From a virus (Duplodnaviria; Heunggongvirae; Uroviricota; Caudoviricetes), in IMG/VR virus record IMGVR_UViG_3300009702_000014, positions 62,445 to 126,444 of that record: a DNA stretch of 64,000 nt; one strand, written 5' to 3'. The translations under genes and the position numbers were made by a program. Shown here in pieces: positions 605 through 63,800 of the stretch. The notes beneath the pieces are model-generated. The model did not search any database and was not told the DNA's origin. It saw only the letters and a program-made list of their open reading frames with translations. Positions within the stretch are counted from its first letter, which is position 1; each line of letters opens with the position of its first letter.

Positions 605-689
605 TGGTGGGAGAGGTAGGATTCGAACCTACTAAGCCTAAGGCATCCGGGTTACAGCCGGACACAACTCGCCATCGTTGCCGCTCTCC
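605..689 (-). tRNA. tRNA-Tyr(GTA), type II with long variable arm, CCA encoded
   Basis: reverse complement gives acceptor GGGAGAG/CTCTCCC, anticodon stem TCCGG/CCGGA with loop CTGTAAC, T-arm GGTTCGAATCC, 3' ACCA. Confidence 0.6.
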
Positions 690-826
690 CATAAATTGAG
701 TATCCTTTTTCGTCGGGCGGCGATACTCGTTCCGCTCCCCGCAACCCGAACCTGTCCTCGGTCAAGCGTCTATCCGCTTTGTCTGCCGTTGCTATTCACG
801 GCTGTCAAACCTATGGTGGGGCTGTA

Positions 827-909
827 TGGTGGACGAAGAGGGACTTGAACCCACGGCCTACGCGCTACGCGCTGCCAGCGCGTTGCTCTTCCAACTGAGC
901 TATTCGCCC
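827..909 (-). tRNA. tRNA-Ala(GGC) carrying a 7-nt tandem duplication (CGCGTAG x2) after the anticodon stem; possibly non-functional
   Basis: acceptor GGGCGAA/TTCGTCC with G3:U70; D-arm GCTCAGTTGGAAGAGC; anticodon loop CTGGCAG; T-loop TTCAAGT; CCA encoded; removing one CGCGTAG copy leaves a canonical 76-nt tRNA. Confidence 0.5.
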
Positions 910-973
910 ATACACACACCATAGTATATCATGTAATGAGAAGCATGTGAATATTTAGCTTCCTCTTTCCCGA

Positions 974-1049
974 TGGTAGCGTAGCACGGATTCGAACCGA
1001 GATTACCAGCTTGAAGGGCTGGTGTCCTGTACCCTTAGACGACTACGCC
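974..1049 (-). tRNA. tRNA-Glu(TTC)
   Basis: reverse complement GGCGTAGTCGTCTAAGGGTACAGGACACCAGCCCTTCAAGCTGGTAATCTCGGTTCGAATCCGTGCTACGCTACCA; resembles bacterial tRNA-Glu as recalled; anticodon loop CCTTCAA. Confidence 0.65.
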
Positions 1050-1259
1050 TTAATTGTACTGCTTGTCGATTTGTTCCTCGGAAAGCACCATGTAGCGCCC
1101 TTCATGCTCTCCCTCTGTAATTCGGCACTTATGATAGGGCTTTCCAAAATGACGCGTTAGAACAATCGCTACTCCACGTGCTTCTTTCTCTGTGTAGAGC
1201 TTTTCATTGACTACTGACACGGTACGGTTCATTTTTTTCCTTCTCCAAGCGTGGCGCAA
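1050..1259 (-). CDS. hypothetical small protein
   Basis: 69-aa ORF between tRNA genes. Confidence 0.3.
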   Translation of the reverse strand: MRHAWRRKKMNRTVSVVNEKLYTEKEARGVAIVLTRHFGKPYHKCRITEGEHEGRYMVLSEEQIDKQYN

Positions 1260-1431
1260 TAAAGTGTTTGACTCGATAGTTTAGATTGTCGGCCAGAGCA
1301 ATAAGCTCTTGGTCTGTAAGAATAGTGAATGGAGCGCCCCAACCGTTTCTTTTGACTATACCATCAAAACGAATTACATGTTCATCAGGTTCCCGACTAG
1401 AAACTACTGTAACTTTTGGCCCCATGCTCAA
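1204..1431 (-). CDS. hypothetical small protein
   Basis: 75-aa ORF between tRNA genes. Confidence 0.3.
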   Translation of the reverse strand: MSMGPKVTVVSSREPDEHVIRFDGIVKRNGWGAPFTILTDQELIALADNLNYRVKHFIAPRLEKEKNEPYRVSSQ

Positions 1432-1447
1432 ACTCCTTACTTAAAAA

Positions 1448-1523
1448 TGGTGTACCAGAAGGGACTCCAACCCCTAACCCCCCGAATGCAAATCGGGCGC
1501 TCTCGCAGTTGAGCTACTGGCAC
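1448..1523 (-). tRNA. tRNA-Ala(TGC)
   Basis: acceptor GTGCCAG/CTGGTAC with G3:U70; anticodon stem CCCGA/TCGGG with loop TTTGCAT; T-loop TTGGAGT; CCA encoded. Confidence 0.65.
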
Positions 1524-1527
1524 GTGA

Positions 1528-1598
1528 TGGTGGAGGCCGAGGGAATCGAACCCTCCAAAGAATGTCTGCATAACATTCAAGCTATTCCTAAAGCCCCC
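1528..1598 (-). tRNA. atypical tRNA-like element (71 nt, reduced D-arm); isotype unresolved
   Basis: canonical T-arm GAGGGTTCGATTCCCTC and ACCA 3' end; acceptor GGGGGCT/GGCCTCC; anticodon region GAATGTTATGCAGACATTC folds ambiguously; D-arm only about 3 bp. Confidence 0.35.
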
Positions 1599-1672
1599 AC
1601 AGTTATAGGAAACAGGGTGTGCTAGCCTATGGTCTAACTTCCTATTTCCATCTGTCGCAGATAATGTCTGCG

Positions 1673-1758
1673 TGGCGGAAGGTGAGGGAATCGAACCCCC
1701 GAGGCTGTTACGCCCAACTGTTTTCAAGACAGGTTCCTCGACCAACCGGGCACCTTCC
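1673..1758 (-). tRNA. tRNA-Ser(TGA), type II
   Basis: acceptor GGAAGGT/ACCTTCC; anticodon loop CTTGAAA; long variable arm; T-arm GGGGGTTCGATTCCCTC; CCA encoded; 86 nt. Confidence 0.6.
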
Positions 1759-1761
1759 ATA

Positions 1762-1836
1762 TGGTCCTCCCGGTAGGAATCGAACCCACGCTGTTCCGAT
1801 TAAAAGTCGGTTGCCTAACCATTCGGCCACGGGAGG
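1762..1836 (-). tRNA. tRNA-Lys(TTT)
   Basis: acceptor CCTCCCG/CGGGAGG; anticodon region ACCGACTTTTAATCGGA resembles bacterial tRNA-Lys; T-loop TTCGATT; ACCA. Confidence 0.65.
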
Positions 1837-1968
1837 ATAAATTGTGTAGTTGGCACACGGTATTTGGACGGTTACTTAGCAGCAACGCCACACTATTATT
1901 TCCGTGCTATCCCCATTGGCCCAGGGTACCTTTCGGCCGCCAACCGTCAACAATATAACAGATACAAA

Positions 1969-1983
1969 TATGAGAAGGATTAG
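1969..1983 (-). promoter_or_regulatory. copy of recurrent minus-strand motif CTAATCCTTCTCATA (putative phage promoter), upstream of a tRNA sub-cluster
   Basis: plus strand reads TATGAGAAGGATTAG; same 15-mer family recurs at least 14 times in the window. Confidence 0.5.
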
Positions 1984-1987
1984 AACT

Positions 1988-2064
1988 TGGTGCTCCGGGA
2001 GGGATTTGAACCCGCATCTGGTCTGATTAAGAATCAGCCGCTTTGCCAATTAAGCTACCGAAGC
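1988..2064 (-). tRNA. tRNA-Lys(CTT) (tentative anticodon)
   Basis: acceptor GCTTCGG/CCGGAGC; D-arm GCTTAATTGGCAAAGC; anticodon loop TTCTTAA by position counting; T-loop TTCAAAT; CCA encoded. Confidence 0.5.
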
Positions 2065-2068
2065 ATAA

Positions 2069-2185
2069 GGCGGAGGGAAGGATTCGAACCTCTCACGACC
2101 GGAACCGTGCCACTTCCAACTGGCCCTCACGCATGGGAGAGTTTACCCCGACTTAAGCACCTTTGTCAACCCCTTTCAAGAAAGT
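2069..2185 (-). tRNA. tRNA-like element or elements with a T-arm signature; structure unresolved
   Basis: contains GGATTCGAACC (T-loop on minus strand) and a D-arm-like GCCAGTTGGAAGTGGC, but no convincing acceptor pairing could be found by hand over the 117-nt interval. Confidence 0.25.
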
Positions 2186-2260
2186 TGGCTCTAGGGGCAG
2201 GATTCGAACCTACAACTAACAGGTTAACAGCCTGTCGTGTTACCATTACACCACCCTAGA
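2186..2260 (-). tRNA. tRNA-Asn(GTT)
   Basis: acceptor TCTAGGG/CCCTAGA; anticodon stem ACAGG/CCTGT with loop CTGTTAA; T-arm GTAGGTTCGAATCCTGC; GCCA 3' end. Confidence 0.7.
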
Positions 2261-2269
2261 ATACATGTT

Positions 2270-2640
2270 TTAATGAAGCTGTTTATACTCCTTGCTCGGA
2301 ATTGTAGTTTGTCGTAAGTTATAAACACTATTCCAAGTAGCTAGGACTGCTAAGAGCAGAATAATAAGGGAAACAAAAGAAGTGCTTCCTTTCAGGAGAG
2401 GCAATAAATAGATTAGACCAATAAACGAATAAATACCTATATGAGCGACCTCCTTTGCTTTACGGCCCCATTTCACAAAAAAAGAAAGGGTATCAAAAAC
2501 TACGTTAAATAAGAAAAGGCCAATTATTACTATAAAATAGTGTTCCGCTATAAAGTCCGAGGAACCAACAAGCCAAAGGATTACCAAAGCTACGAGACTA
2601 AAATAAATAATATCGTTAAAGATACGTTTTACGTAAGGCA
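2270..2640 (-). CDS. small integral membrane protein
   Basis: ORF 2270..2698 is strongly hydrophobic with several predicted TM segments; start trimmed to internal Met (MPYVKR) because the upstream part overlaps tRNA-Asp. Confidence 0.4.
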
Positions 2641-2662
2641 TACATAATATCCTCTCAAATAT

Positions 2663-2740
2663 TGGCGGCCTAGACGGGATTCGAACCCGCAACCTCACCG
2701 GCTGACAACCGGGTGTTCAACACCGTAGAACTACTAAGCC
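2663..2740 (-). tRNA. tRNA-Asp(GTC)
   Basis: acceptor GGCTTAG/CTAGGCC; anticodon loop TTGTCAG; T-arm GCGGGTTCGAATCCCGT; GCCA 3' end. Confidence 0.65.
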
Positions 2741-2765
2741 ATACCTAAAGTATATGATAGCAGGA

Positions 2766-2780
2766 AATGAGAAATATTAG
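2766..2780 (-). promoter_or_regulatory. copy of recurrent motif (minus strand CTAATATTTCTCATT) upstream of tRNA-Asp
   Basis: plus strand reads AATGAGAAATATTAG. Confidence 0.45.
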
Positions 2781-2810
2781 ATTGTCAATGTACTTGTCCT
2801 AGAAGGACTT

Positions 2811-2884
2811 TGGCGCGGGAGGAGGGATTCGAACCCATTCACAGAGGAGTTTTGGGGACTCCCTGGCACAACCTACGCTCTCCC
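2811..2884 (-). tRNA. degenerate tRNA-like element (possible tRNA-Trp(CCA) remnant)
   Basis: T-loop TTCGAAT and GCGCCA 3' end; good anticodon-like hairpin GGAGT-CCCCAAA-ACTCC; acceptor and T-stems pair poorly and the D region is shortened. Confidence 0.3.
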
Positions 2885-3328
2885 ACATGTGCGGATGTGT
2901 TTTCTAATAGCATTATCCGAAACGCCTAACTCTCTACCCAAAGCAGAATACCCGATTTCTTCGGCTCGGGCTGTGAGGTATTCCACAGGAGGCCAGTCTA
3001 TCTTTTTACGGCGAAAATCGTACCAAGTTTTTATATAATTAGGTTTCACTCGGTAACGAGTGTCTAAGCATATATAAGCGCCGTCCATACGTTTCACAAG
3101 AGGATTTTTCTTGTTTCTATGGTACCGCGCATGGTGTCGCTGACTTAGAAAAACCATCAAATTACTTGGGACGTTGTGCGCTCGATTTTCGTCCATATGA
3201 TGCACAACTTCATAATTTTTTAATGGCCTCCCAAGCATCCTCTCAGCGACCAATACATGTTCCCATACACATCCGTTGGGGCGTGCTCTAGGGTGGGCGG
3301 GGCGATAAATTTCAACATAGTTATTCAT
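2873..3328 (-). CDS. HNH homing-type endonuclease
   Basis: HNH motif VVHHMDENRAHNVPSNLMVFLSQRHHARYH; start trimmed to internal Met (MNNYVEIY) because upstream ORF sequence overlaps tRNA-Gly; embedded in the tRNA array. Confidence 0.6.
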   Translation of the reverse strand: MNNYVEIYRPAHPRARPNGCVWEHVLVAERMLGRPLKNYEVVHHMDENRAHNVPSNLMVFLSQRHHARYHRNKKNPLVKRMDGAYICLDTRYRVKPNYIKTWYDFRRKKIDWPPVEYLTARAEEIGYSALGRELGVSDNAIRKHIRTCGRA

Positions 3329-3374
3329 TTTACTGCCCTTTCCGTGTGGAGCGGCATAGGAGAATCGACAAATT

Positions 3375-3450
3375 TGGAGCGGACGGTGAGATTCGAACTC
3401 ACGAAATATCGGTTTGGAGGACCGACGCCTTACCACTTGGCCACGTCCGC
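3375..3450 (-). tRNA. tRNA-Gly(TCC)
   Basis: acceptor GCGGACG/CGTCCGC; anticodon stem TCGGT/ACCGA with loop CCTCCAA; T-arm GGTGAGTTCGAATCTCACC; TCCA 3' end resembles bacterial tRNA-Gly(UCC). Confidence 0.7.
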
Positions 3451-3716
3451 ATAAATTTTACCGCAAGCCGGGGTGGAGGGCCGTATGCATCCGGTTATCC
3501 TCTCACGCAGGGAGCGGTAAGTCCCCTACGCACAGCAAAGCCCCGACCAGTAACTCCCCAGCATCGTAACACTGAGGGTGCCACAGAATAAATCTGTGGG
3601 GGAGAAAATACGGGCAGCTACTCAGGAAACCGACCTTTTGGGTCCGGGGGTGCTTTTTGCGTCACTCTGTCGCCGGGTTTGCCCAACCCTATTATCCTCT
3701 CGGCGTGACGGCGGTA

Positions 3717-3806
3717 TGGCGGTGGGAATAGGATTCGAACCTATGGACCTCTTTCGAAATCACGTACTTTCCAGGCACGCCCAATAAACCGCTCTGGCAT
3801 CCCACC
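3717..3806 (-). tRNA. tRNA-Ser(GGA), type II
   Basis: acceptor GGTGGGA/TCCCACC; anticodon stem CGTGC/GTACG with loop CTGGAAA; long variable arm; T-arm ATAGGTTCGAATCCTAT; GCCA; 90 nt. Confidence 0.6.
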
Positions 3807-3853
3807 ATGTTCAAACTTGCATTCATTACATTTGAACAGTATAATATACTTAT

Positions 3854-4399
3854 ATGAAAACTACATTAGAAAACGACATTCTTACTTTAAGAAAAGAAGG
3901 AAAAACTTATTCTCAAATTCAAAAAGAACTAGGCTGTTCCAGAGGCACTATTTCTTATTATGTTGGTAAAGGACAGAAAGATAAAACACGTCAACGAAAT
4001 AAAAAAGTTAGAGACGAAAATCCAGTTAGTCGAAAGGTAGCTGAATTTAAATCAAGAGGAAAAGCACGAAAGAATTTTGTTTCTAAAACAAGAGATTTCC
4101 AACGTCGTGACGGTTTATATCTAGCATCTACTCCTGAAACCGTTGATTTTACGTATCAAGACGTGCTAGATAAAATTGGCCCTAATCCTACATGTTATTT
4201 AACAGGACTGCCTATAGATTTATATGACCCGTCCTCTTACCATTTTGACCATATTATCCCTGCATCACAAGGTGGTAATAATTCTCTAGAAAACCTTGGA
4301 ATCGCTTTAAAATCCGCAAACAATGCAAAAGACTCATTACTCTTAGGAGAATTTTTAGACCTGTGTGAAGCAGTTTTGAAACACCACGGTAGAATATAA
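3854..4399 (+). CDS. HNH homing-type endonuclease with N-terminal HTH
   Basis: HNH motif HFDHIIPASQGGNNSLENLGIALKSANNAK; the only plus-strand gene inside the minus-strand tRNA array. Confidence 0.65.
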   Translation: MKTTLENDILTLRKEGKTYSQIQKELGCSRGTISYYVGKGQKDKTRQRNKKVRDENPVSRKVAEFKSRGKARKNFVSKTRDFQRRDGLYLASTPETVDFTYQDVLDKIGPNPTCYLTGLPIDLYDPSSYHFDHIIPASQGGNNSLENLGIALKSANNAKDSLLLGEFLDLCEAVLKHHGRI

Positions 4400-4401
4400 A
4401 T

Positions 4402-4488
4402 TGGCGGAAGGGGTGGGAATCGAACCCACAGGCCCATTGAGCCCCGAATTTAGCAAATTCGGCAGAGTAGCCAATCTCAATCCCTTCC
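4402..4488 (-). tRNA. tRNA-Ser(GCT), type II
   Basis: acceptor GGAAGGG/CCCTTCC; anticodon stem CGAAT/ATTCG with loop TTGCTAA; long variable arm; T-arm GTGGGTTCGATTCCCAC; GCCA. Confidence 0.65.
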
Positions 4489-15479: not shown

Positions 15480-15749
15480 CTATGAGACTTTTTCTAGATT
15501 AACCATGTTAAATTGCTCAAAAAACCCTTCTAGAAATACAGTTGTGCGGGAAGGATATACATAAACTCCACGAACTGTATACTTTTTATCTTTCTCAAGA
15601 GTCTTTTTGGCTATTTCCTTATCCTGATTATCCCCGGCCTCGAAAAAAGGAACTACAATATCCCCCGGCTGTAGGGGGTAGGTAGAATCGTCAAAATTTA
15701 CACTGCCGTCTGGTTGTGGATTAGGTGTTGTGAAGTTTTGTGTAAACAT
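15480..15749 (-). CDS. hypothetical protein, paralogue of the next ORF
   Basis: shares PG..VV ... Y.VRGVYVYP..T.V.LEG pattern with 15749..16048. Confidence 0.4.
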   Translation of the reverse strand: MFTQNFTTPNPQPDGSVNFDDSTYPLQPGDIVVPFFEAGDNQDKEIAKKTLEKDKKYTVRGVYVYPSRTTVFLEGFFEQFNMVNLEKVS

Positions 15750-16048
15750 CAGGGAACCCTTTTAAGACATACGGAGTTAAAAGGCACTGAGTAACCAACA
15801 AGGTACACATCAGTATGCCAACCATAAACCTCAACCCGACGAGTGGTGTAAACATCTGTCAAATTGAGGGTTTCCTTAATCTTCTTTTTGTCCAAAGCTG
15901 TACCTCCTCTGATTTCCCCATTAACGAGGTCAACAACTACTTGATTCCCCGGCTGCAACTCCCAATCAGGCAAGTCGCCGCCGGGGTACTGAAAGAAATT
16001 TTGAGCGTACTCCTCAACGCGATTTACTTCTTTACGGAAATCGTACAT
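15749..16048 (-). CDS. hypothetical protein, paralogue of the previous ORF
   Basis: tandem arrangement; similar motif order (PGNQVVVD ... YTTRRVEVYGWHTDVYLVGY). Confidence 0.4.
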   Translation of the reverse strand: MYDFRKEVNRVEEYAQNFFQYPGGDLPDWELQPGNQVVVDLVNGEIRGGTALDKKKIKETLNLTDVYTTRRVEVYGWHTDVYLVGYSVPFNSVCLKRVP

Positions 16049-16768
16049 TTAGGTCCCCTTCAAAACTAAGACCGGCTTTAAACGTTTTTCGACAATTGCT
16101 ACTTCGGCATCAACCAATGCTCCAATTACTTCATCTACGTCCTTATAGGCTCCGTGAGATTCGTCCAAGGGCACGTTCTGGAAGTTACCCATAACGTTTC
16201 TTGTTTTAAACTCAGCGTTAATAGTGCCCTGGTCGAGCATTTCCTTTGCCTTACCACGGCTCAGCACGCGGCCAGCACCGTGAGACACAGACTCCCCGAG
16301 TTTCGGAGCCATTTTACCAGGACGGAGCACGTAGCTTCCAGTTGCCATGCTACCAGGAACTAGTAACGGAATACCATCGTTATCGTAGGCTGGTGTAGCC
16401 CCCTTACGGCCTACGAATTTTTCGTTGCGCTGCTCAATGAAGTTGTGCGGAATGTGCCCGATAAAATTAAATTGAGCCTCTGGAAGCACTTCCTGGATTG
16501 CCTCTGCGACCGAGTGCTGCACAATATAGTGGTTATGAGTCGTCCATTCAAGCATAGCCTGTTGGAAGGCGAAGTAGAAACGCCCCAAACTACTATCCGC
16601 AGGAACGTAGAGCAACTTATTCTTAGGTGCTGCTCCCCACTTCGTCAATTCCGCTTCAATAGCTTCGTCAAAGAATTTTGCACCCTTTGCTCCAATTCCA
16701 CGGCTACCGAAATGCGACATAACGAAAACATTTCCATCTTCATCTTCCTGTACTTCTACAAAGTGATT
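16049..16768 (-). CDS. rtcB: RtcB RNA ligase, exon 2 (C-terminal part)
   Basis: in-frame extension above the annotated Met reads NHFVEVQEDEDGNVFVMSHFGSRGIG; contains RtcB GSRG, PGSMATGSYV and SHGAGR motifs; upstream stop at 16784. Confidence 0.7.
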   Translation of the reverse strand, partial: NHFVEVQEDEDGNVFVMSHFGSRGIGAKGAKFFDEAIEAELTKWGAAPKNKLLYVPADSSLGRFYFAFQQAMLEWTTHNHYIVQHSVAEAIQEVLPEAQFNFIGHIPHNFIEQRNEKFVGRKGATPAYDNDGIPLLVPGSMATGSYVLRPGKMAPKLGESVSHGAGRVLSRGKAKEMLDQGTINAEFKTRNVMGNFQNVPLDESHGAYKDVDEVIGALVDAEVAIVEKRLKPVLVLKGT

Positions 16769-17836
16769 CAGTGTTGTTACTACTTACGCGAATTGGATAA
16801 AACCTACCGACCAAGGTTTGTTTTCTCCATATCTACATTGTATACTACATTTTGGTGAGATTGATGAGACTAGACTTTTCCAAACCAGAATTTTCATATA
16901 TGCTCGGATTACTACACGCAGACGGACATTATGACAAACAACATACCAATGGCAAAATAACACTTGAAGCCAGTATGAAAGATGTGGATATAGCCCATAA
17001 ATTATCAAAAGTGCTTCCTGGAAAATCTACAATCACGTATAGGAACCGGCATACTAATTACTCAAAAGACTCTCAAACCTTTGTGTGGAGCATATATGAC
17101 AAAGACATTCGTACTCAGTTCCCTATGCCTTCTGGCAAAAAATCCCACCTAATTGCCCCTCCAGATATCCCTTACTCCAAAGTAGACTATTGGAGAGGTA
17201 TCATAGATGGTGATGGTTCTCTTGGATTTACCAGTCAAGGACTTCCTTTTATTAGTTTAGTAACTCAAAGTGAGGCTCTAAAGGAAACCTACATAGATTT
17301 TCTTGAACCAATTCTAGGATATCGCAAGCGGCTATCACGTAATACACGGGATAATGTGTATAATATTGTAATATTCAATGAGGCGGCTCAGTCACTAGCA
17401 AATAAACTTTACTATCTTGACTGTCTTGCTATTGCTAGAAAGTACGAAGTGGCGAATCAGCTTAAACAATGGGAGCGTTCTATCCCGCAGCGGCCCCGCT
17501 CCCTACCGTGGGAGCAATGGGAAGAACAATATTTACAGACACACACCCTTGATGAAGCTATCAAATACTTATCTCATAGAACGAAAAAGGCTATTAAACT
17601 AAAACATTATCGCATAAGCGGGTAGGTCATTTCTGCCTACCTCAACATGTTTCCATGCTGCTCAGACTATCCCTTCATCCCGTAGGATGCGCCTATTATA
17701 GTCGTTGCACGTTCCCTCGCGGGCTTCGCTCAGGGTTGCCGTATAGCACCTAAAGGTCGGTGGCGCTACTTAGGGTTCCCCTGAATTTAAGGCGTTTTTA
17801 TCTTCCCTGTTACCAGGAAAGGGAGGCAGTCAGTTT
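16769..17836 (-). mobile_element. intervening sequence in rtcB (probable group I intron, about 1068 nt) carrying a LAGLIDADG endonuclease ORF in antisense orientation
   Basis: splits the invariant RtcB motif GGG|NHF; exon 1 ends with U (codon GGT), the insert ends with G (..CTG) before AAT CAC TTT; GC-rich structured flanks at 17626-17836. Confidence 0.55.
16852..17625 (+). CDS. LAGLIDADG homing endonuclease (two motifs)
   Basis: YMLGLLHADGH and WRGIIDGDGSLGF; plus strand, i.e. antisense to rtcB. Confidence 0.75.
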   Translation: MVRLMRLDFSKPEFSYMLGLLHADGHYDKQHTNGKITLEASMKDVDIAHKLSKVLPGKSTITYRNRHTNYSKDSQTFVWSIYDKDIRTQFPMPSGKKSHLIAPPDIPYSKVDYWRGIIDGDGSLGFTSQGLPFISLVTQSEALKETYIDFLEPILGYRKRLSRNTRDNVYNIVIFNEAAQSLANKLYYLDCLAIARKYEVANQLKQWERSIPQRPRSLPWEQWEEQYLQTHTLDEAIKYLSHRTKKAIKLKHYRISG

Positions 17837-18430
17837 ACCTCCACCAATGCTACCAACTTGTCCAAGCTGCGCCTGAGTCATGAGCTTGCTAAGCAAGTCC
17901 CACAAACTCTTCCATTCGTGAGTACGAGCGTGTTTATACAGCACGTACTCGCTGTTTTTGACCCAGGTCTTTTCGTGGCGAAAATGCCCCTGCACAATCC
18001 ACTTAAATTCGTCTATCGTTATGGGACGGCTCTGCTTTGGGACACGGGCGTGTCCTGCACCAACGCTAATACGACGGCCCATTTCTCCAAGAATGCGGCT
18101 ACGAAGTCCCTTGTCGGCCTGAGAAAGTCCTTTAATCCCATTAACTCGCATCAAAGACACAGAGCAGGCGGGGTCAGGCCCTACAACATCAGGGTAAAGG
18201 TGCGTACTAGACTCGACTACGCTCCCAATCGGGAAACCATAGCCCGTGTGCATGTCAGGCGTAACAGTGAAGCGTTCCACCCCCGGCAACTCCATAGAAT
18301 TGCGAAGTTGCTCCAATGCAGAGGATTCGACTGCCCCCATGAGGGCATCAGAGAGAAGCATGGTTGCCCATACGTTTCCGTGGCGCATTTTATAAATATT
18401 GCCAGCTTTAAACGGCTGAAATTCATTCAT
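17837..18430 (-). CDS. rtcB: RtcB RNA ligase, exon 1 (N-terminal part)
   Basis: PDMHTGYGFPIGSV and GSIGGG (start of GGGNHF motif); the ORF reads through into the insert (KLTASLSW*). Confidence 0.7.
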
Positions 18431-18573
18431 AATGAGTTCATCCTATCTATGTACTTACATTACAGCACCTTAAAGTGAGAACAACGAGAACCTCTGGCTT
18501 ACTGAGTTTTCTCCCACAAATCCGCCCCTACCAAATGTTTATGAATAGAGGTAATCTTCTAATATGGGTGTCC

Positions 18574-19653
18574 TTATGACAACCCGTATGGGCTGCTGCC
18601 AACGAAGTCGATAAAAATCTTCGACCTCTTGTTTCGTGACTCGGGGGTGTTACCACCTTGTTGTGAAATTAGGTCATATTCGTAAGTAATCGGAGACTTC
18701 GCCTCTTTTAGCTTATGGAAATCGTCCCACGCTACTTTAAGAGATTCTATGTTGTCCTCTGAAAACCAATCTGTCTTTTTCTTATGAACTAACATCAAGG
18801 TGACAATTTGTGTTTCGTTGAATTTACGTGCAATCCGCTGACTGTCAGATTCGGTGTAAAGGCTTACTAATGCATCAAGAGCTTCCAAAAACTCAACTAC
18901 CAAATCCGAGGCGTCACTAATCTCCTTCTCCTTTGTTCCGGTGGTTAGGTACAAATGGTCTACAGGACCCCTACTAGTGGTAATGTCAGGCTCAAGCGTG
19001 ATGGCGAGAAGGTGGGTTGCAAGTTTCTTACGCTCTGCACCCCTTTCCCTTAGTTTTATTGTATCAAACAACTCATCAAATTCCCTTACAATAACCTCAA
19101 CCGCCTTAGAGTACCAATTTCTTACCGCATTTCGCTTCTCTTGGGGTTTTAGAGCGACACCTTCTTGTAGAAGAGTAAAAATGGTTGTAAGAGCATCTTC
19201 TGGATAGTCTTTAAGCATTACTACATCAAACACACATTCTCTGATATCTTCCTGTCTACCGGGGGGTAGGTCAGAGAATTTCTTACCAATACAGTCTGAG
19301 ACTCCCTCTGTGTACTGTGGGTTCTTTGGATTAAAACTTAGCCTGGAAGTCTTACCGTCGGTGGTCTTACCAGTTAGATACTCCAAAGCTGTCAGTAGTC
19401 TTTGCTTTCCGTCAACTACCTCATATACAAACGTCCCGTCTTCTCTAGCCCTTTTGTGGAAATAGATTTTAGGAATATCTGCCCAAGAGCTATTCAGTAG
19501 AGTATAGATGAAATTCTTTCGTTTTTCTCTGGGCCATGCCCCTTCATCACGTTGCATACTAATATCGAAGTCGAGTTTTCCCGCCTCGTAATGCATACGA
19601 ATCGTGTCTAGGGTCAGATGTTCGAAGGTTTTTCTCTTTGCCATGATTATCAA
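18574..19653 (-). CDS. DUF262 (ParB/GmrSD-like nuclease domain) protein
   Basis: VVDGKQRLLTALEYL, equivalent to the DGQQR motif; likely true start at MAKRK with RBS AAAGGAG. Confidence 0.55.
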   Translation of the reverse strand: MIIMAKRKTFEHLTLDTIRMHYEAGKLDFDISMQRDEGAWPREKRKNFIYTLLNSSWADIPKIYFHKRAREDGTFVYEVVDGKQRLLTALEYLTGKTTDGKTSRLSFNPKNPQYTEGVSDCIGKKFSDLPPGRQEDIRECVFDVVMLKDYPEDALTTIFTLLQEGVALKPQEKRNAVRNWYSKAVEVIVREFDELFDTIKLRERGAERKKLATHLLAITLEPDITTSRGPVDHLYLTTGTKEKEISDASDLVVEFLEALDALVSLYTESDSQRIARKFNETQIVTLMLVHKKKTDWFSEDNIESLKVAWDDFHKLKEAKSPITYEYDLISQQGGNTPESRNKRSKIFIDFVGSSPYGLS

Positions 19654-19694
19654 GCTCCTTTTTGATATAATAACATGTTATCATAGCATGTTAT

Positions 19695-19760
19695 AGTTTG
19701 TCAAGAGTATACCGTGGCGCATCTTGTAAATGTTGCCCGCTTTAAACGGCTCATTCATAT
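19695..19760 (-). pseudogene. remnant duplicate of the rtcB 5' end (22-codon fragment MNEPFKAGNIYKMRHG..)
   Basis: 19710-19760 is about 85% identical to 18378-18430 (rtcB start codons MNEFQPFKAGNIYKMRHG) with a 6-nt indel. Confidence 0.5.
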
Positions 19761-19961
19761 GGCTATAACCCTCCCTAGCTCCTTAAAAACCTTCACCATA
19801 TCCTGTTCCAAAGCTTTAATTGCGACACGTCGAATTTTTGAGTCAGACATTCCAGGGTGTATCTTTTTTTGGAAAGCAACTTCCTTACAAAAGGCTTTGT
19901 AAAACTTCGGGCGATACTGACTAAAATATGAACTATTCCAATAATCCTGAATGTGTGCCAT
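19755..19961 (-). CDS. hypothetical protein
   Basis: 68-aa ORF. Confidence 0.35.
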   Translation of the reverse strand: MAHIQDYWNSSYFSQYRPKFYKAFCKEVAFQKKIHPGMSDSKIRRVAIKALEQDMVKVFKELGRVIAI

Positions 19962-21275: not shown

Positions 21276-22151
21276 TTAGTAAACCGGGAAGAAGAGCAGC
21301 GTGGTATTGTTTACAGCCGTACCAATAACTATAACATTTCCTGTAGCAGGCATATTACTAGAGATATGCCCATTTTCTGCTAAGTAGTATACTGTGCCTG
21401 CTTGAAGGTTCTGCATTCCAGTTACCAGACTACCAGGGAGGTAGAATTTGTTGTTGTAATGAAAAACCAGTCCAACAAGTTCAAGGCGCGAATTTGAGCT
21501 AGAGGCTGTTGTCCAGGTGTTATTGACATGAGTCATACGTAGGACAAGTGACCCGGTACCATAATTCTGGTCGGTTGTAAAGTTGGTGGTGTCACCATTC
21601 TTACTAGTGATAAATACACCGTCTTTTCCTGAGGGGCCTTGGGGTCCAGTATTTCCCCTAGGGCCTTGTGGACCAGTTGCCCCAACAGGCCCTTGCGGGC
21701 CACGCGCCCCAGTATCACCCTTTGGTCCCTGCGGTCCCTGAGCACCAGTATCCCCCTTAGGCCCTTGTGGGCCGACCGGACCCTGAGGGCCAGTTTCGCC
21801 TATATGTCCTGGCGTGCCGGGAGTCCCAGGCGCCCCCGCGGGCCCGCGTTCACCTTGCGGTCCCTTAGGCCCCTGCGGGCCTTGAGCACCAGTATCCCCT
21901 TTTGGTCCTGTTGCTCCGGTATCGCCCTTTGGACCGGCTGGTCCTGTATGTCCTGGTGTTCCAGCGGGGCCCCTATCCCCCTTAGGCCCCTGCGGACCAG
22001 CAGGGCCTCTTTCACCCCTCGGGCCAGCCTTACAGGTCTGACCATGATAGCCAGAATCATCGCCATGCCCTCCATCAGCAAAAGCCACTCCGACGCCCCC
22101 CATAAAGGCGAGCGAAAGAAGAAGGAGTATAATAAGTCGAAGTCTTTTCAT
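21276..22151 (-). CDS. secreted collagen-like triple-helix repeat protein with C-terminal globular domain
   Basis: signal peptide [25 protein letters not shown]; about 55 uninterrupted G-X-Y triplets; start chosen at the Met with RBS AGGA. Confidence 0.7.
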
Positions 22152-22190
22152 AAGTTCAATCCTTTCGTTTAACATTGTTCCATAAAAGTT

Positions 22191-22205
22191 TATGAGAAGT
22201 ATTAG
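22191..22205 (-). promoter_or_regulatory. copy of recurrent motif (minus strand CTAATACTTCTCATA), 40 nt upstream of collagen-like gene start
   Basis: plus strand reads TATGAGAAGTATTAG. Confidence 0.5.
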
Positions 22206-22681
22206 TTTATAAATAAAAGCAATCCCAACACAAGCAAGTGAAAGGCTTGGTCTGTTAGGATAGTGGCGGGAGCCCAACTGCGAGTAACCCAGCGGCGGCT
22301 ATCAATAATAAGGTGAGTCCCAAATATCACAAGCAATCCCCACCAGGAAAAAGCACCTAACAAAACCGCCGGAATAAAGAATGCGGTATAAATTAGTACA
22401 TGCTGAAAAAGTGCTGGGATACTAAATCGTATCTTATTCATATCCAAAGGGTGCTTTTTGCGCCTCAAAAGATACGACATGACTTCAAACGCATGACTCT
22501 TATATTTCGCCATCCTATCCGTCTGGTAGGTGTAGTCTCCCAATATGTGTAATGCAAGTAGAATTAAAATCATATTACTCCCAAGGGTACTGATGCGACG
22601 GCTTCCAACGTGGGTTACGTCCGTAATCATCCACGAACACTTCATCGAACACCGTTTGGTGAGGATAATTATACCGTTCAA
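22202..22681 (-). CDS. membrane protein
   Basis: hydrophobic segments FFIPAVLLGAFSWWGLLVIFGTHLII and LLVLGLLLF. Confidence 0.4.
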   Translation of the reverse strand: MNGIIILTKRCSMKCSWMITDVTHVGSRRISTLGSNMILILLALHILGDYTYQTDRMAKYKSHAFEVMSYLLRRKKHPLDMNKIRFSIPALFQHVLIYTAFFIPAVLLGAFSWWGLLVIFGTHLIIDSRRWVTRSWAPATILTDQAFHLLVLGLLLFIN

Positions 22682-60828: not shown

Positions 60829-63800
60829 TTACCCGCAGTTTGAAGCTCCGCAGTCACGGCACAAAGTACAGCCTGATTCGAAGATTACATTTTCACCACC
60901 ACAAACAGAGCATGTAACTCCTTTAATCTCGGTACCGTTCTTAATATGAGATGAAAGGAACTTCTTGATAGCAAAGATTAGGTCTGTAACATAGACCTCT
61001 GGAACGCGGTCCAAAGCTGCCACAATGTTGGTCAATGGAATGTTATGACGGAGACACATGGAAACAAACTTAGCAACACGCATGTATCCCCCGTTGCCTT
61101 TGGTTTTTTCTTTTTGTACTTCAATCAAGTCAGGGTCAATCTCAAAGCGTTCAAGCAAGTCTACGAGTACTTTAACTGCTCCGTTTGCTTCACGAATATC
61201 CCCCGTGTTGTTCGTTTGAATCCAAAGTGCGATGGGGAATATTCTCTCGGAATCCTCGGGCAGATAAGAGAAATTCATGTAGAACTTCTGCCCTTCTCGC
61301 TTAATAATATGCATATCCCCATTTATAAACACATCAGGAAGCTTCAAGTCCTTTTTAATAACATCTGGCTGTTTAGTCTCTTTGGATTCCTCGACTTGTG
61401 AGAGGACTGCTTCCATTGAACCGGCTCTATAGGTTGTGAATCCATTTAGCCCGCGCTTCCATGCCTCCATATACAGATTCTTAAACTCTTCATAGTCGTA
61501 GTTATTTGGCACATTTAGAGTTTTGCTCGTGCTTTGGTTCATATTGCTTTGAACTATCTCTTGTATATTGATATGGTCCATAACGTTCAAGTCGTTGGTT
61601 GTAACCATGTAATATTCGACGGGCAACGAAAATAAACCTTCTTGCACTTCATAGTCCTCCGGGTAATTATCCATAACCCATTGAACTCCATAGTCCCTTA
61701 CAGTTTCGGTAATGCATAAACCTCGATTGTGTGGTTCATAAAGCCAGTTCGTTCCGTTATATTCTCCGGCCCACGCTACGGAGTCTCCCTGCTTTGTCTC
61801 CTTCAATATATCCTTAATATTCTCTTTTGTTAATCCCTTGGGCCAAGTATCAGCGATGTAGGTACGCTGGTATTCAGTCATAAACACGGGCTCAATACCA
61901 TTCGAAACAATATCACAGATAACCGACGAATTACCTAGTGGAGGATTCGTGGTTGTCTTACCGTTACGGACACCATTCTTACGGATTAAGTCCTTGGTTT
62001 CCTCGGAAATCTTTGTGAACTCGGTGAACCATTGAGTCGTTAGGAAGTTTTCATTGTAGGCGGGGAATGGACCCTTTTCGGCTGCCAACTCCGCAGACGT
62101 TCTCCAGGTCAATTCTTCCTTTAGGGCGGTGACTCTTTCAGTAAATTCATGCGCGTCTTTGGAATTATATGCAATACCCATCATATACAAGGCGGACCCC
62201 AAACCATTGATGCCCATACCATATTGACGCACATTTTCTGTGGCCCAATTATATTGAGGTAACGCATTGTTTGTTAAGTCATTAACATTATCCAAAGCCC
62301 GCGCAAAGATAGGAATATCTTTCTTTAACTGGTCCCAGTCAAAACTCCTATCATCCAAAACGTACTGAGTCAAGTTGATGGACCCCAAAAGACATACGGT
62401 ACTCGTAAGTGGGTTGCCACCAATCTCACCACACGGGTTTGTGGCGTTCAATGGACCAAGGTAAGCCAACGGATTATTGCGCTGCATACTGTCATAGAAC
62501 AAAATACCCGGTTCTGCACGGTTGTATGTAGACTTCATAATTAGGTCATACAACTCACGGGCCTTAATACGCTTGTAAACCTTACCGTCAAAGTGCAAAT
62601 CGTAGAAGTCGTCAGCTTCAACGGCTTCCATAAACTTGTTGTCCACGATAACAGACATATTGAATTTTGTTAGACGGCCCGGTTCCTGCTTCGCTCGTAC
62701 ATACTCTTCGATATCCGGGTGCCAAATAGGCAGAACAGCCATCTGAGCACCTTTACGAGCTTGCTTCTTCATTTTAATAGAAGCATCTTTACCCATTTCA
62801 TCTAAATAATTCTTAATCGTATCTTGATATCCGTCATTGTTACCCATGACAATAACTGTCGCTACTTTATCCCAGATATCCATATAATGAATCACACCAG
62901 GGTGAGTGATACCTATACTTTTAATAACAGAGCCACGCGGCCGAATAAAACCAAAATTAATACCATACCCTCCCTCCGACTTGAGGGTTTCTGCCTGTTC
63001 CAGCAGAGTGAGCATGATATTCTTTAGATTGTCACCAGTATCGTCTGTATGGTAAGTAACATCAATAGTTTTGTCCGTATTTGGCACAGGGCGTTGGTAG
63101 GAGATGGTCGCGTTTTTTACAGGCCCATTAATGAAGCAGTTGCCACTAAAAATACCTCCTGAAAGGGTAAAAGTTGCAGTTTTTGGCACAACCGCACAAT
63201 ACACTTCTTCCTCACGCAATAGTGGAGTAATGCTAACAACCTTAAACTTTAGGTTACGAGCGTTGTATAGAATTAGTCTTTTGAGTAAGCTACTACGCTT
63301 ACCCAAATTAGTTTCTTCTGAGTGGTAATCCGTTCTATATCCAGTTGCAATGTATCCCGCAAAGGGAGCATTCTCCTGCAACCATCGAAGGCCCTTTAGG
63401 TTGGTTGAAGAAAGCTCTACCCGTTCGTCACTGAGTATGCTCCCGTCAGCAGCTAACCAGCCTTTGATAAAGCCTGAAATGTAATTAGGGTCAGTATCCG
63501 TAGGAAGCTCTTTGAAGTTTATAGGGCTTCTAACGTAGGTGATTGCATCAACACCACCCCAGTCAACACCTTTAACATTGTCAAACATGGAAGAGTACTG
63601 TAAATCTTTTTGACCGAAAAACCTTACTTCAAACTTATAGTCTCCGTTTGCGTAGCTGTAAGCCCTCCAGCCACCACCAAAAACAAACCCGTGTTGGAAT
63701 CCGTAGCGGTAGTTCTCCGAAGTAGTATCTACCTCTGCCACCTGAGCAGGAACAACATCTCCTACACGCAACGCTGTCGTTTCAGTTCCATCCGAGAGTA

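Follow-up and report, generated by a model that had tools for sequence, protein, structure and literature searches.

We analyzed a 64,000-nt stretch of a tailed-phage genome (IMG/VR record IMGVR_UViG_3300009702_000014, positions 62,445 to 126,444; hereafter the window), in which a gene for a DUF262 protein lies between two copies of the start of rtcB, the gene for an RNA-repair enzyme. With a probability that we put at roughly 60%, this locus is a recombination scar, where a foreign promoter, the DUF262 gene, a spacer, and an rtcB start were joined in from a diverged phage. Events of this type are already known, and the locus is a further, well-preserved example.

The window belongs to a ~203-kb phage genome that is known from metagenomes only (European Nucleotide Archive (ENA) ERZ27249683 k141_484103). 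Its gene content includes T4-like rIIA/rIIB genes and a block of 12 tRNA genes. The locus lies wholly on the minus strand and is transcribed in the order collagen-like gene, p188, p151, p68, rtcB-like stub, DUF262 gene, 143-nt spacer, and rtcB. The p68 gene (19755..19961, minus strand; 68 amino acids (aa)), taken from the list of open reading frames (ORFs), is the conserved left neighbor of rtcB; its function is unassigned, and it has no match in Pfam, PHROG, or PADLOC.

Two copies of the rtcB start flank the DUF262 gene

The functional start of rtcB (codons 1-18, MNEFQPFKAGNIYKMRHG; 18377..18430, minus strand) belongs to exon 1, whose product matches the Pfam RtcB family. Alignment and a repeat search revealed a shorter copy on the other side of the DUF262 gene (19711..19758, minus strand), which would represent codons 1-16 of a displaced allele (MNEPFKAGNIYKMRHG) and whose homology ends at 19712. 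The initial annotation had noted an rtcB-like copy of ~50 nt near 19710-19760, and this repeat is confirmed. Local alignment of the copies yields 43 of 49 identical positions with one 2-nt gap and a score of 62; when the surrounding 10 kb were shuffled 200 times, the highest score was 28. When the remnant was compared with the whole window (blastn-short), the functional start was the single further copy (E = 9e-9), and the repeat search delineated a 40-nt ungapped pair (18378-18417 and 19712-19751) with 90% identity and a spacing of 1334 nt.

The match is in frame. The remnant reads ATG AAT GAG CCG TTT AAA GCG GGC AAC ATT TAC AAG ATG CGC CAC GGT (19758-19711) and the functional start ATG AAT GAA TTT CAG CCG TTT AAA GCT GGC AAT ATT TAT AAA ATG CGC CAC GGA (18430-18377); compared codon by codon, they share 42 of 48 positions and differ in addition by an in-frame 6-nt indel. 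Both contain the motif PFKxGNxYKMxHG, the conserved N-terminus of this RtcB clade, which among all fetched loci is doubled only in the window and in its near-identical contigs. The short copy is a true remainder of an rtcB start. Its ATG (19758-19756) overlaps the TGA of p68 (ATATGA). A stop directly after the remnant peptide, as reported earlier, is not present: sequence reading and a six-frame motif scan show a residual 25-codon frame (19681..19758, minus strand) that consists of the remnant, nine unrelated codons (ILLTNYNML), and a stop, so that it ends at 19681. This frame is probably translated through coupling to p68.

The six differences between the copies (GAA/GAG, GCT/GCG, AAT/AAC, TAT/TAC, AAA/AAG, and GGA/GGT, functional start and remnant, respectively) all fall on third codon positions and are all synonymous; non-synonymous differences are absent. 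In the 13 codons (P to G) that the copies share, the proportions of synonymous and non-synonymous differences (pS and pN) are 0.65 and 0, and the probability that five to six random substitutions would all be synonymous is 2e-5 to 6e-4. The pS value falls within the range of 0.53-0.78 that we found among orthologs of distinct phages. Synonymous-only divergence therefore indicates that the copies diverged as working genes in separate lineages and were not duplicated in place with subsequent decay. This speaks against the partial target duplication that had been proposed for the locus, since the two sequences behave as diverged functional alleles. The stub evidently has had little time to decay since it was stranded. 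In addition, the homology of the copies begins exactly at the ATG, and the end of p68 shows no similarity to the 143 nt that precede the functional start, as would be the case if that start had come in together with other upstream sequence.

Two further contigs, one from ENA (L001) and one from Logan (L002), are near-identical to the window and carry the same arrangement. Relative to the window, they carry 6 and 3 single-nucleotide polymorphisms (SNPs), respectively, all of them outside 18370-19770. At positions 17919 and 20286, both contigs differ from the window, and they have extra private SNPs; the phage has been sampled in no fewer than three near-identical genotypes. Because the arrangement is found in three assemblies with distinct SNPs, it is not an assembly artifact. 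No close relative of the region was found among 50,697 GenBank phages with megablast or blastn.

A related phage has an empty site

A search with p68 retrieved a contig of 1645 bp (L039; ENA ERZ23510489 NODE_90145), in which a p151 homolog and a p68 homolog (P0012, 76% aa identity) are followed by rtcB after 16 nt. This contig has neither the DUF262 gene nor an intron, and its rtcB is continuous through the position of the intron that interrupts rtcB in the window. The comparison with a cassette-free relative, which had been suggested as a check, thus shows p68 directly before rtcB, and the empty site supports the earlier view of the DUF262 gene as an insertion, in favor of one in the window lineage. 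The gene order indicates that the adjacency of p68 and rtcB is ancestral and that the stub lies where rtcB began in the ancestor.

Relatedness to L039 breaks between p68 and rtcB. For the p151 core and p68, the window and L039 differ with a pS of 0.535 and a non-synonymous divergence (dN) of 0.08. For rtcB, pS is 0.78, which is saturated, and dN is 0.32, evenly over 345 codons, so that the rtcB of the window is as distant from that of L039 as from that of the more remote L035. As rtcB is far more diverged than p151 and p68 just upstream, the imported tract probably spans the rtcB start and much of rtcB, which argues against a short cassette that was dropped in alone. The right-hand exchange would then fall past the end of L039.

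The gene located 5' of rtcB differs in every relative examined: a metallophosphatase in L028 (7262-8000), a metallophosphatase with a 93-aa gene in L057 (176-1270), a 148-aa gene in L035 (1886-2332), a 99-aa gene in L034 (3775-4074), and the p68 homolog in L039 (378-600). The 5' border of rtcB therefore appears to be a recurrent exchange point. A degenerate DNA pattern of the RtcB N-terminal motif matched only L034/L036 and L035 in IMG/VR and JGI metagenomes; these loci have an uninterrupted rtcB, other upstream genes, and no DUF262 gene. Scanning IMG/VR with the RtcB N-terminal fragment gave nothing close, and a degenerate DNA pattern of p68 had zero matches there. With p151, 25 IMG/VR loci were obtained, all of them distant (27-52% identity in the C-terminal part), and rtcB lies nearby only in two (L014/L015, ~30-35% identity).

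The segment between the two rtcB starts

The initial annotation had placed the DUF262 gene at 18574..19653 between the two copies, with its own ribosome-binding site. The placement and the site (AAGGAG) hold, but the start needs revision, as ATG 19644, which has AAGGAG ten nt upstream, is likelier than TTG 19653. The resulting gene (18574..19644, minus strand) encodes 356 aa, which is the version recorded in the protein collection.

A promoter scan returned a sigma-70-type match upstream of the gene, TTGACA-18 nt-TAACAT with an extended -10 TG (19675..19704, minus strand; 10 of 12 positions matched in silico). It begins 7 nt past the end of the remnant homology, which marks the putative joint, and would provide the DUF262 gene with its own predicted promoter. 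An imperfect palindrome (19663..19688; 17-nt arms, 88% complementary) overlaps the -10 element and may be an operator or a stem-loop. Neither the promoter match nor the palindrome has a second copy in the 64-kb window of the ~203 kb genome, where other promoter matches share the hexamers only. A homolog with 51% identity (P0006), whose gene has other neighbors and follows that for a glycosyltransferase, is likewise preceded by a promoter match of its own (TTGACA-17-TATAGT).

A spacer of 143 nt (18431..18573, minus strand) extends from the DUF262 stop to the functional start of rtcB; it would be part of the imported segment and is unique in the window. Neither a terminator (terminator scan) nor a structured RNA (fold z = -0.73) was detected in this spacer. 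Since no terminator follows the DUF262 gene, rtcB is probably transcribed from the same predicted promoter as well.

A proposed recombination event

In the reading that we favor, the ancestor would have carried p68 followed directly by rtcB, as in L039. In a mixed infection with a diverged relative, it would have received a foreign segment made up of the promoter, the DUF262 gene, the spacer of 143 nt, and the rtcB start of the donor, and probably also the bulk of the intron-bearing donor rtcB or the whole of it. On the left, the joint would be non-homologous (illegitimate) and lie after codon 16 of the resident rtcB, leaving 16 codons stranded and coupled to the p68 stop. The right exchange would have been homologous and have occurred within or beyond rtcB, which would account for rtcB having stayed intact. 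The DUF262 gene would then be a moron-type passenger, an accessory gene with its own predicted promoter that separates two genes which a relative has next to each other. The data directly show the repeat, the empty site in L039, the synonymous-only divergence of the copies, and the domain content of the protein, whereas the donor, the order of events, and the position of the right-hand exchange are putative. Mosaic joints in phages are usually erased or intergenic, whereas the joint here is kept inside a coding sequence and an empty site is known; the locus would thus offer a clean, datable case of accessory gene gain by one illegitimate and one homologous exchange.

Several observations weigh against this reading. 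The lack of a terminator after the DUF262 gene sets it apart from a textbook moron. The empty site is represented by a single relative, which is short (1645 bp) and fairly distant (synonymous divergence, dS, ~0.9 in p151/p68), so that the right-hand junction cannot be located on it, and the rtcB of L039, rather than that of the window, may be the replaced allele. The remnant is barely nearer to the relatives than the functional start is (32 vs 29, 34 vs 31, 31 vs 29, and 27 vs 26 of 39 nt), and its lineage assignment therefore rests on position and not on sequence. The G+C content at third codon positions does not set the segment apart from the rest of the genome. A donor with the DUF262 gene, spacer, and rtcB in this order and without the remnant was not found, and linkage between DUF262 genes and rtcB is absent at 15 distant viral DUF262 loci. 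We also tried to place the remnant in the L039 lineage on the basis of its sequence and abandoned this, as the informative sites are too few and the remnant is merely closer to the consensus of all relatives.

The DUF262 protein is a solitary relative of defense sensors

The DUF262 protein matches the DUF262 domain of the GmrSD N-terminus (GmrSD_N, Pfam PF03235) with 35.5 bits against a cut-off of 33.2 over residues 31-173, and the QRxxxW and DGxQR motifs, as defined for this family (PMC12065111), are present. Motif III, FxxxN, reads FxxxQ (residues 156-160) in the window protein and its three closest homologs, and FxxxN in the distant bacterial homologs P0009 and P0010. Past residue 173, no Pfam or NCBIfam match was obtained, and the DUF1524 nuclease half is missing. 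An AlphaFold model (predicted local distance difference test, pLDDT, 80.8) shows an N-terminal domain of the ParB/sulfiredoxin (Srx) type followed by a C-terminal domain in which residues 167-349 are all helices. The top structural matches of this model are BrxU, SspE, ParB, KorB, and sulfiredoxin, although the BrxU and SspE chains are considerably longer (560-580 aa vs 356 aa). A sequence-profile search of solved structures gave no useful match.

The best match in the defense libraries is PADLOC NsnA (8.3e-21, residues 8-279), which is the sensor and not an effector of the Menshen defense system, and the protein conforms to the NsnA architecture of a ParB-DUF262 domain and a helical DNA-binding domain (PMC12065111). 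In characterized systems, DUF262 is the NTPase and DNA sensor, and the nuclease of GmrSD and SspE is DUF1524 (PMC12065111). HNH, GIY-YIG, LAGLIDADG, PD-(D/E)xK, EDxHD, and His-Me domains were not found by Pfam, NCBIfam, PADLOC, model, or fold searches of the protein. The earlier designation as a nuclease-domain gene thus has to be withdrawn, since only the DUF262 (ParB-like NTPase) part and a helical C-terminal half are present and the NsnA sensor is the best match. By analogy, we infer that the product is a solitary, NsnA-like and ParB-like, NTP-binding DNA sensor or clamp with no effector domain, and not an endonuclease. More generally, the label "DUF262/GmrSD" does not imply a nuclease when the DUF1524 half is missing, which calls for caution in annotation.

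Close relatives of the protein are very rare: among 1.84 billion, only 2 cluster representatives reach E<=1e-30, and 45 reach E<=1e-10. It has no match in the 50,697 GenBank phages (tblastn) and nothing close in IMG/VR, and its distant homologs are located in bacterial defense islands or in unrelated viral contexts. NsnB and NsnC are absent from the ten surrounding proteins according to a PADLOC scan. The protein probably plays a role in phage-host or phage-phage conflict, and this rare, solitary, phage-borne relative of a defense sensor beside an RNA-repair enzyme is a reasonable candidate for anti-defense or phage-phage competition. It is conceivable, if quite doubtful, that it serves as a counter-defense decoy, a sensor mimic that would titrate or poison Menshen-type or other DUF262 systems of the host and that was recruited beside RtcB as a two-layer answer to RNA-targeting immunity. 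If this were true, the phage would both block the sensor and repair the damage; the effectors of the targeted systems are RNases. Less likely than such a decoy is a new class of mobile-element endonucleases, formed by solitary DUF262 proteins that would carry a replacement 5' end of their target gene.

Upstream of each of the distant bacterial homologs P0010 and P0009 lies an overlapping 338-aa gene that has no Pfam match and with which it may form a two-gene DUF262 system (L038, 6290-8361, and L040, 2563-4634, respectively). Their neighborhoods contain defense-type genes, for a methylase, HEPN and TIR-like proteins, and a second GmrSD_N protein.

rtcB, its intron, and neighboring genes

The rtcB gene is interrupted by a group I intron of 1068 nt (16769..17836, minus strand), which was identified with Rfam RF00028 (68.4 bits vs a gathering score of 50; ribozyme core 17846-17643). 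Exon 1 (17837..18430, minus strand; Pfam RtcB) was delimited at the splice site by the Rfam alignment and the uninterrupted RtcB of L035 and L039, and exon 2 (16049..16768, minus strand) matches Pfam RtcB with 5e-45; the spliced ORF is continuous and encodes 437 aa. A LAGLIDADG homing-endonuclease gene (16852..17625, plus strand; Pfam LAGLIDADG_3) is situated in the intron 3' of the ribozyme core, and the same layout is found in L028. The intron is shared with L028 and L057 and is missing from L039, L035, and L034. As a consequence of the intron, the exon-1 ORF ends in a tail, GGGK(L/M)TAS(L/P)(S/L)W* (window 17810-17836; P0001-P0003), which is translated intron P1/P2 and not a protein feature. 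This tail is kept in three phages that are only 47-54% identical, and gene callers output two RtcB fragments. The DUF262 cassette itself was also considered as an intron and rejected: Rfam shows only the downstream group I intron, and an intron would have no use for a second start codon preceded by a separate spacer.

An RtcB that is 50-56% identical to the phage enzyme and has the same N-terminal motif is encoded in L031 (4570-5890; GCA_030147925.1, JASBUK010000040.1), where it adjoins V-type ATPase genes and is called as two proteins of 163 and 253 aa. This split may reflect a frameshift or another interruption, and the locus may hint at the host lineage.

Directly 3' of rtcB, two tandem paralogs of the T4 Y07B family are encoded (15480-16048, minus strand). 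The collagen-like gene of the locus (21276-22277, minus strand) codes for a Gly-X-Y repeat protein with a signal-like N-terminus and has a counterpart upstream of rtcB in L035. The tRNA genes (605-4488, minus strand; n=12) comprise Tyr, Ala x2, Glu, Ser x3, Lys x2, Asn, Asp, and Gly.

Alternative explanations

A more specific version of the favored reading would involve the intron endonuclease. The donor's LAGLIDADG enzyme would have cut an intron-less resident rtcB, resection would have proceeded to approximately codon 16, and the donor would have been copied across all of exon 1, the spacer, and the DUF262 gene, which would have hitch-hiked on homing before a non-homologous joint closed the repair. 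The p68-linked allele in L039 indeed lacks the intron that the rtcB of the window has, rtcB as a whole appears foreign when compared with p68, no more than 594 nt separate the functional start from the intron insertion site downstream, and the presence of the same intron and endonuclease gene in L028 and L057 shows that the element spreads within the phage group. We nevertheless consider this version unlikely, as ordinary homing with co-conversion would use the donor's homologous rtcB start and leave no remnant, so that an extra illegitimate joint is needed. The exon flanks also show no clear co-conversion signal: identity between the window and L028 is 0.83/0.77 over 30 nt and goes down to 0.51/0.70 over 120 nt, and the 3' flank of the window is nearest to the intron-less L039 (0.90 over 30 nt). 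Moreover, the intron is old, with 55-85% identity to that of L028. An in situ insertion, in which a mobile cassette duplicated ~50 nt at the rtcB start and the copies then drifted, would match the appearance of a single gene flanked by direct repeats and the absence of the DUF262 gene from a relative. It is decidedly improbable given that all six differences are synonymous, as a dead copy at a pS of 0.65 should hold many non-synonymous changes, and that the repeat starts exactly at a start codon. Neither a transposase or integrase nor terminal inverted repeats occur in the segment, and at 48-54 nt, a target duplication would far exceed the length of those known from transposons.

The homing-like event that the initial annotation had offered as an alternative would require the DUF262 protein to be a site-specific nuclease and the cassette a free-standing homing element with a cleavage-resistant replacement rtcB start. 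The presence/absence polymorphism at a conserved gene border would agree with such an element, the functional start might in principle escape cleavage through its silent differences, and the ParB-like fold includes chains named "ParB-like nuclease domain". However, no recognized homing-endonuclease domain (HNH, GIY-YIG, LAGLIDADG, PD-(D/E)xK) and no DUF1524 is present, and the characterized DUF262 proteins divide the labor between an NTPase/sensor and the DUF1524 nuclease (PMC12065111), so that this would be a homing mechanism without its enzyme. Close homologs are also very rare and occur in unrelated contexts, and homing alone leaves no displaced target fragment; we regard the explanation as highly improbable. 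Chance similarity or an assembly chimera, for which only the short length of the repeat speaks, has a negligible probability in view of the shuffling and E values, the in-frame match on the conserved RtcB N-terminal motif, and the agreement of three assemblies with different SNPs.

Comparison with known systems

The segment does not resemble a transposon or insertion sequence, as it has one ORF that does not encode a recombinase, no terminal inverted repeats, and flanking repeats of 48-54 nt with ~88% identity. Some integrating elements restore the end of the gene that they target; examples are islands in tRNA genes and SXT, which enters prfC at its 5' end. As in these elements, the incoming DNA brings a working target end and a promoter, and the native end is displaced to the far side; in contrast to them, the locus has no integrase, its repeats are ~88% rather than ~100% identical, and there is no sign of reversible site-specific recombination. 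T4-like phages also carry free-standing homing endonuclease genes, seg and mob, which promote intron-less homing. The DUF262 gene is similar to these in that it is a selfish-looking gene between conserved genes, is absent in a relative, and lies beside a gene with a true endonuclease-bearing intron. It differs by the lack of an endonuclease domain, and a clean homing conversion leaves no 5' fragment of the other allele.

Compared with Menshen NsnA and the N-terminal half of GmrSD, BrxU, and SspE, the window gene is phage-borne and solitary, and its product has FxxxQ in place of FxxxN. The locus lacks the NsnB ABC ATPase and the NsnC RNase of Menshen, and the DUF1524 nuclease of GmrSD.

Cassette shuffling at promoter-early stem-loop (PeSL) elements has been described in T4-type phages (PMC2839356, PMC4122927). 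The locus is reminiscent of this arrangement in that a sigma-70-like promoter match with an overlapping palindrome directly precedes a variable accessory gene and that the phage has T4-like rII genes. PeSL elements, however, recombine among many similar resident copies, whereas the promoter/palindrome and the spacer of this locus are unique in the 64-kb window, and the joint lies within a coding sequence and not in a resident regulatory motif. PeSL-type shuffling was therefore rejected for the locus, as the window contains no repeated promoter/stem-loop motif.

A close parallel to the favored reading is the accretion of morons (Hendrix et al, 2000, as summarized in PMC2839356). The locus shares with morons an accessory gene that has a promoter match and is flanked by two genes which a related phage has side by side, and a gain that would have occurred by non-homologous joining. 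It departs from them in that no terminator follows the gene and that the gene resides in a lytic-type phage of ~200 kb, which has rII genes and is not lambdoid. In addition, the DUF262 gene is co-oriented with its neighbors, and a datable stub of the putatively displaced gene is kept at the joint.

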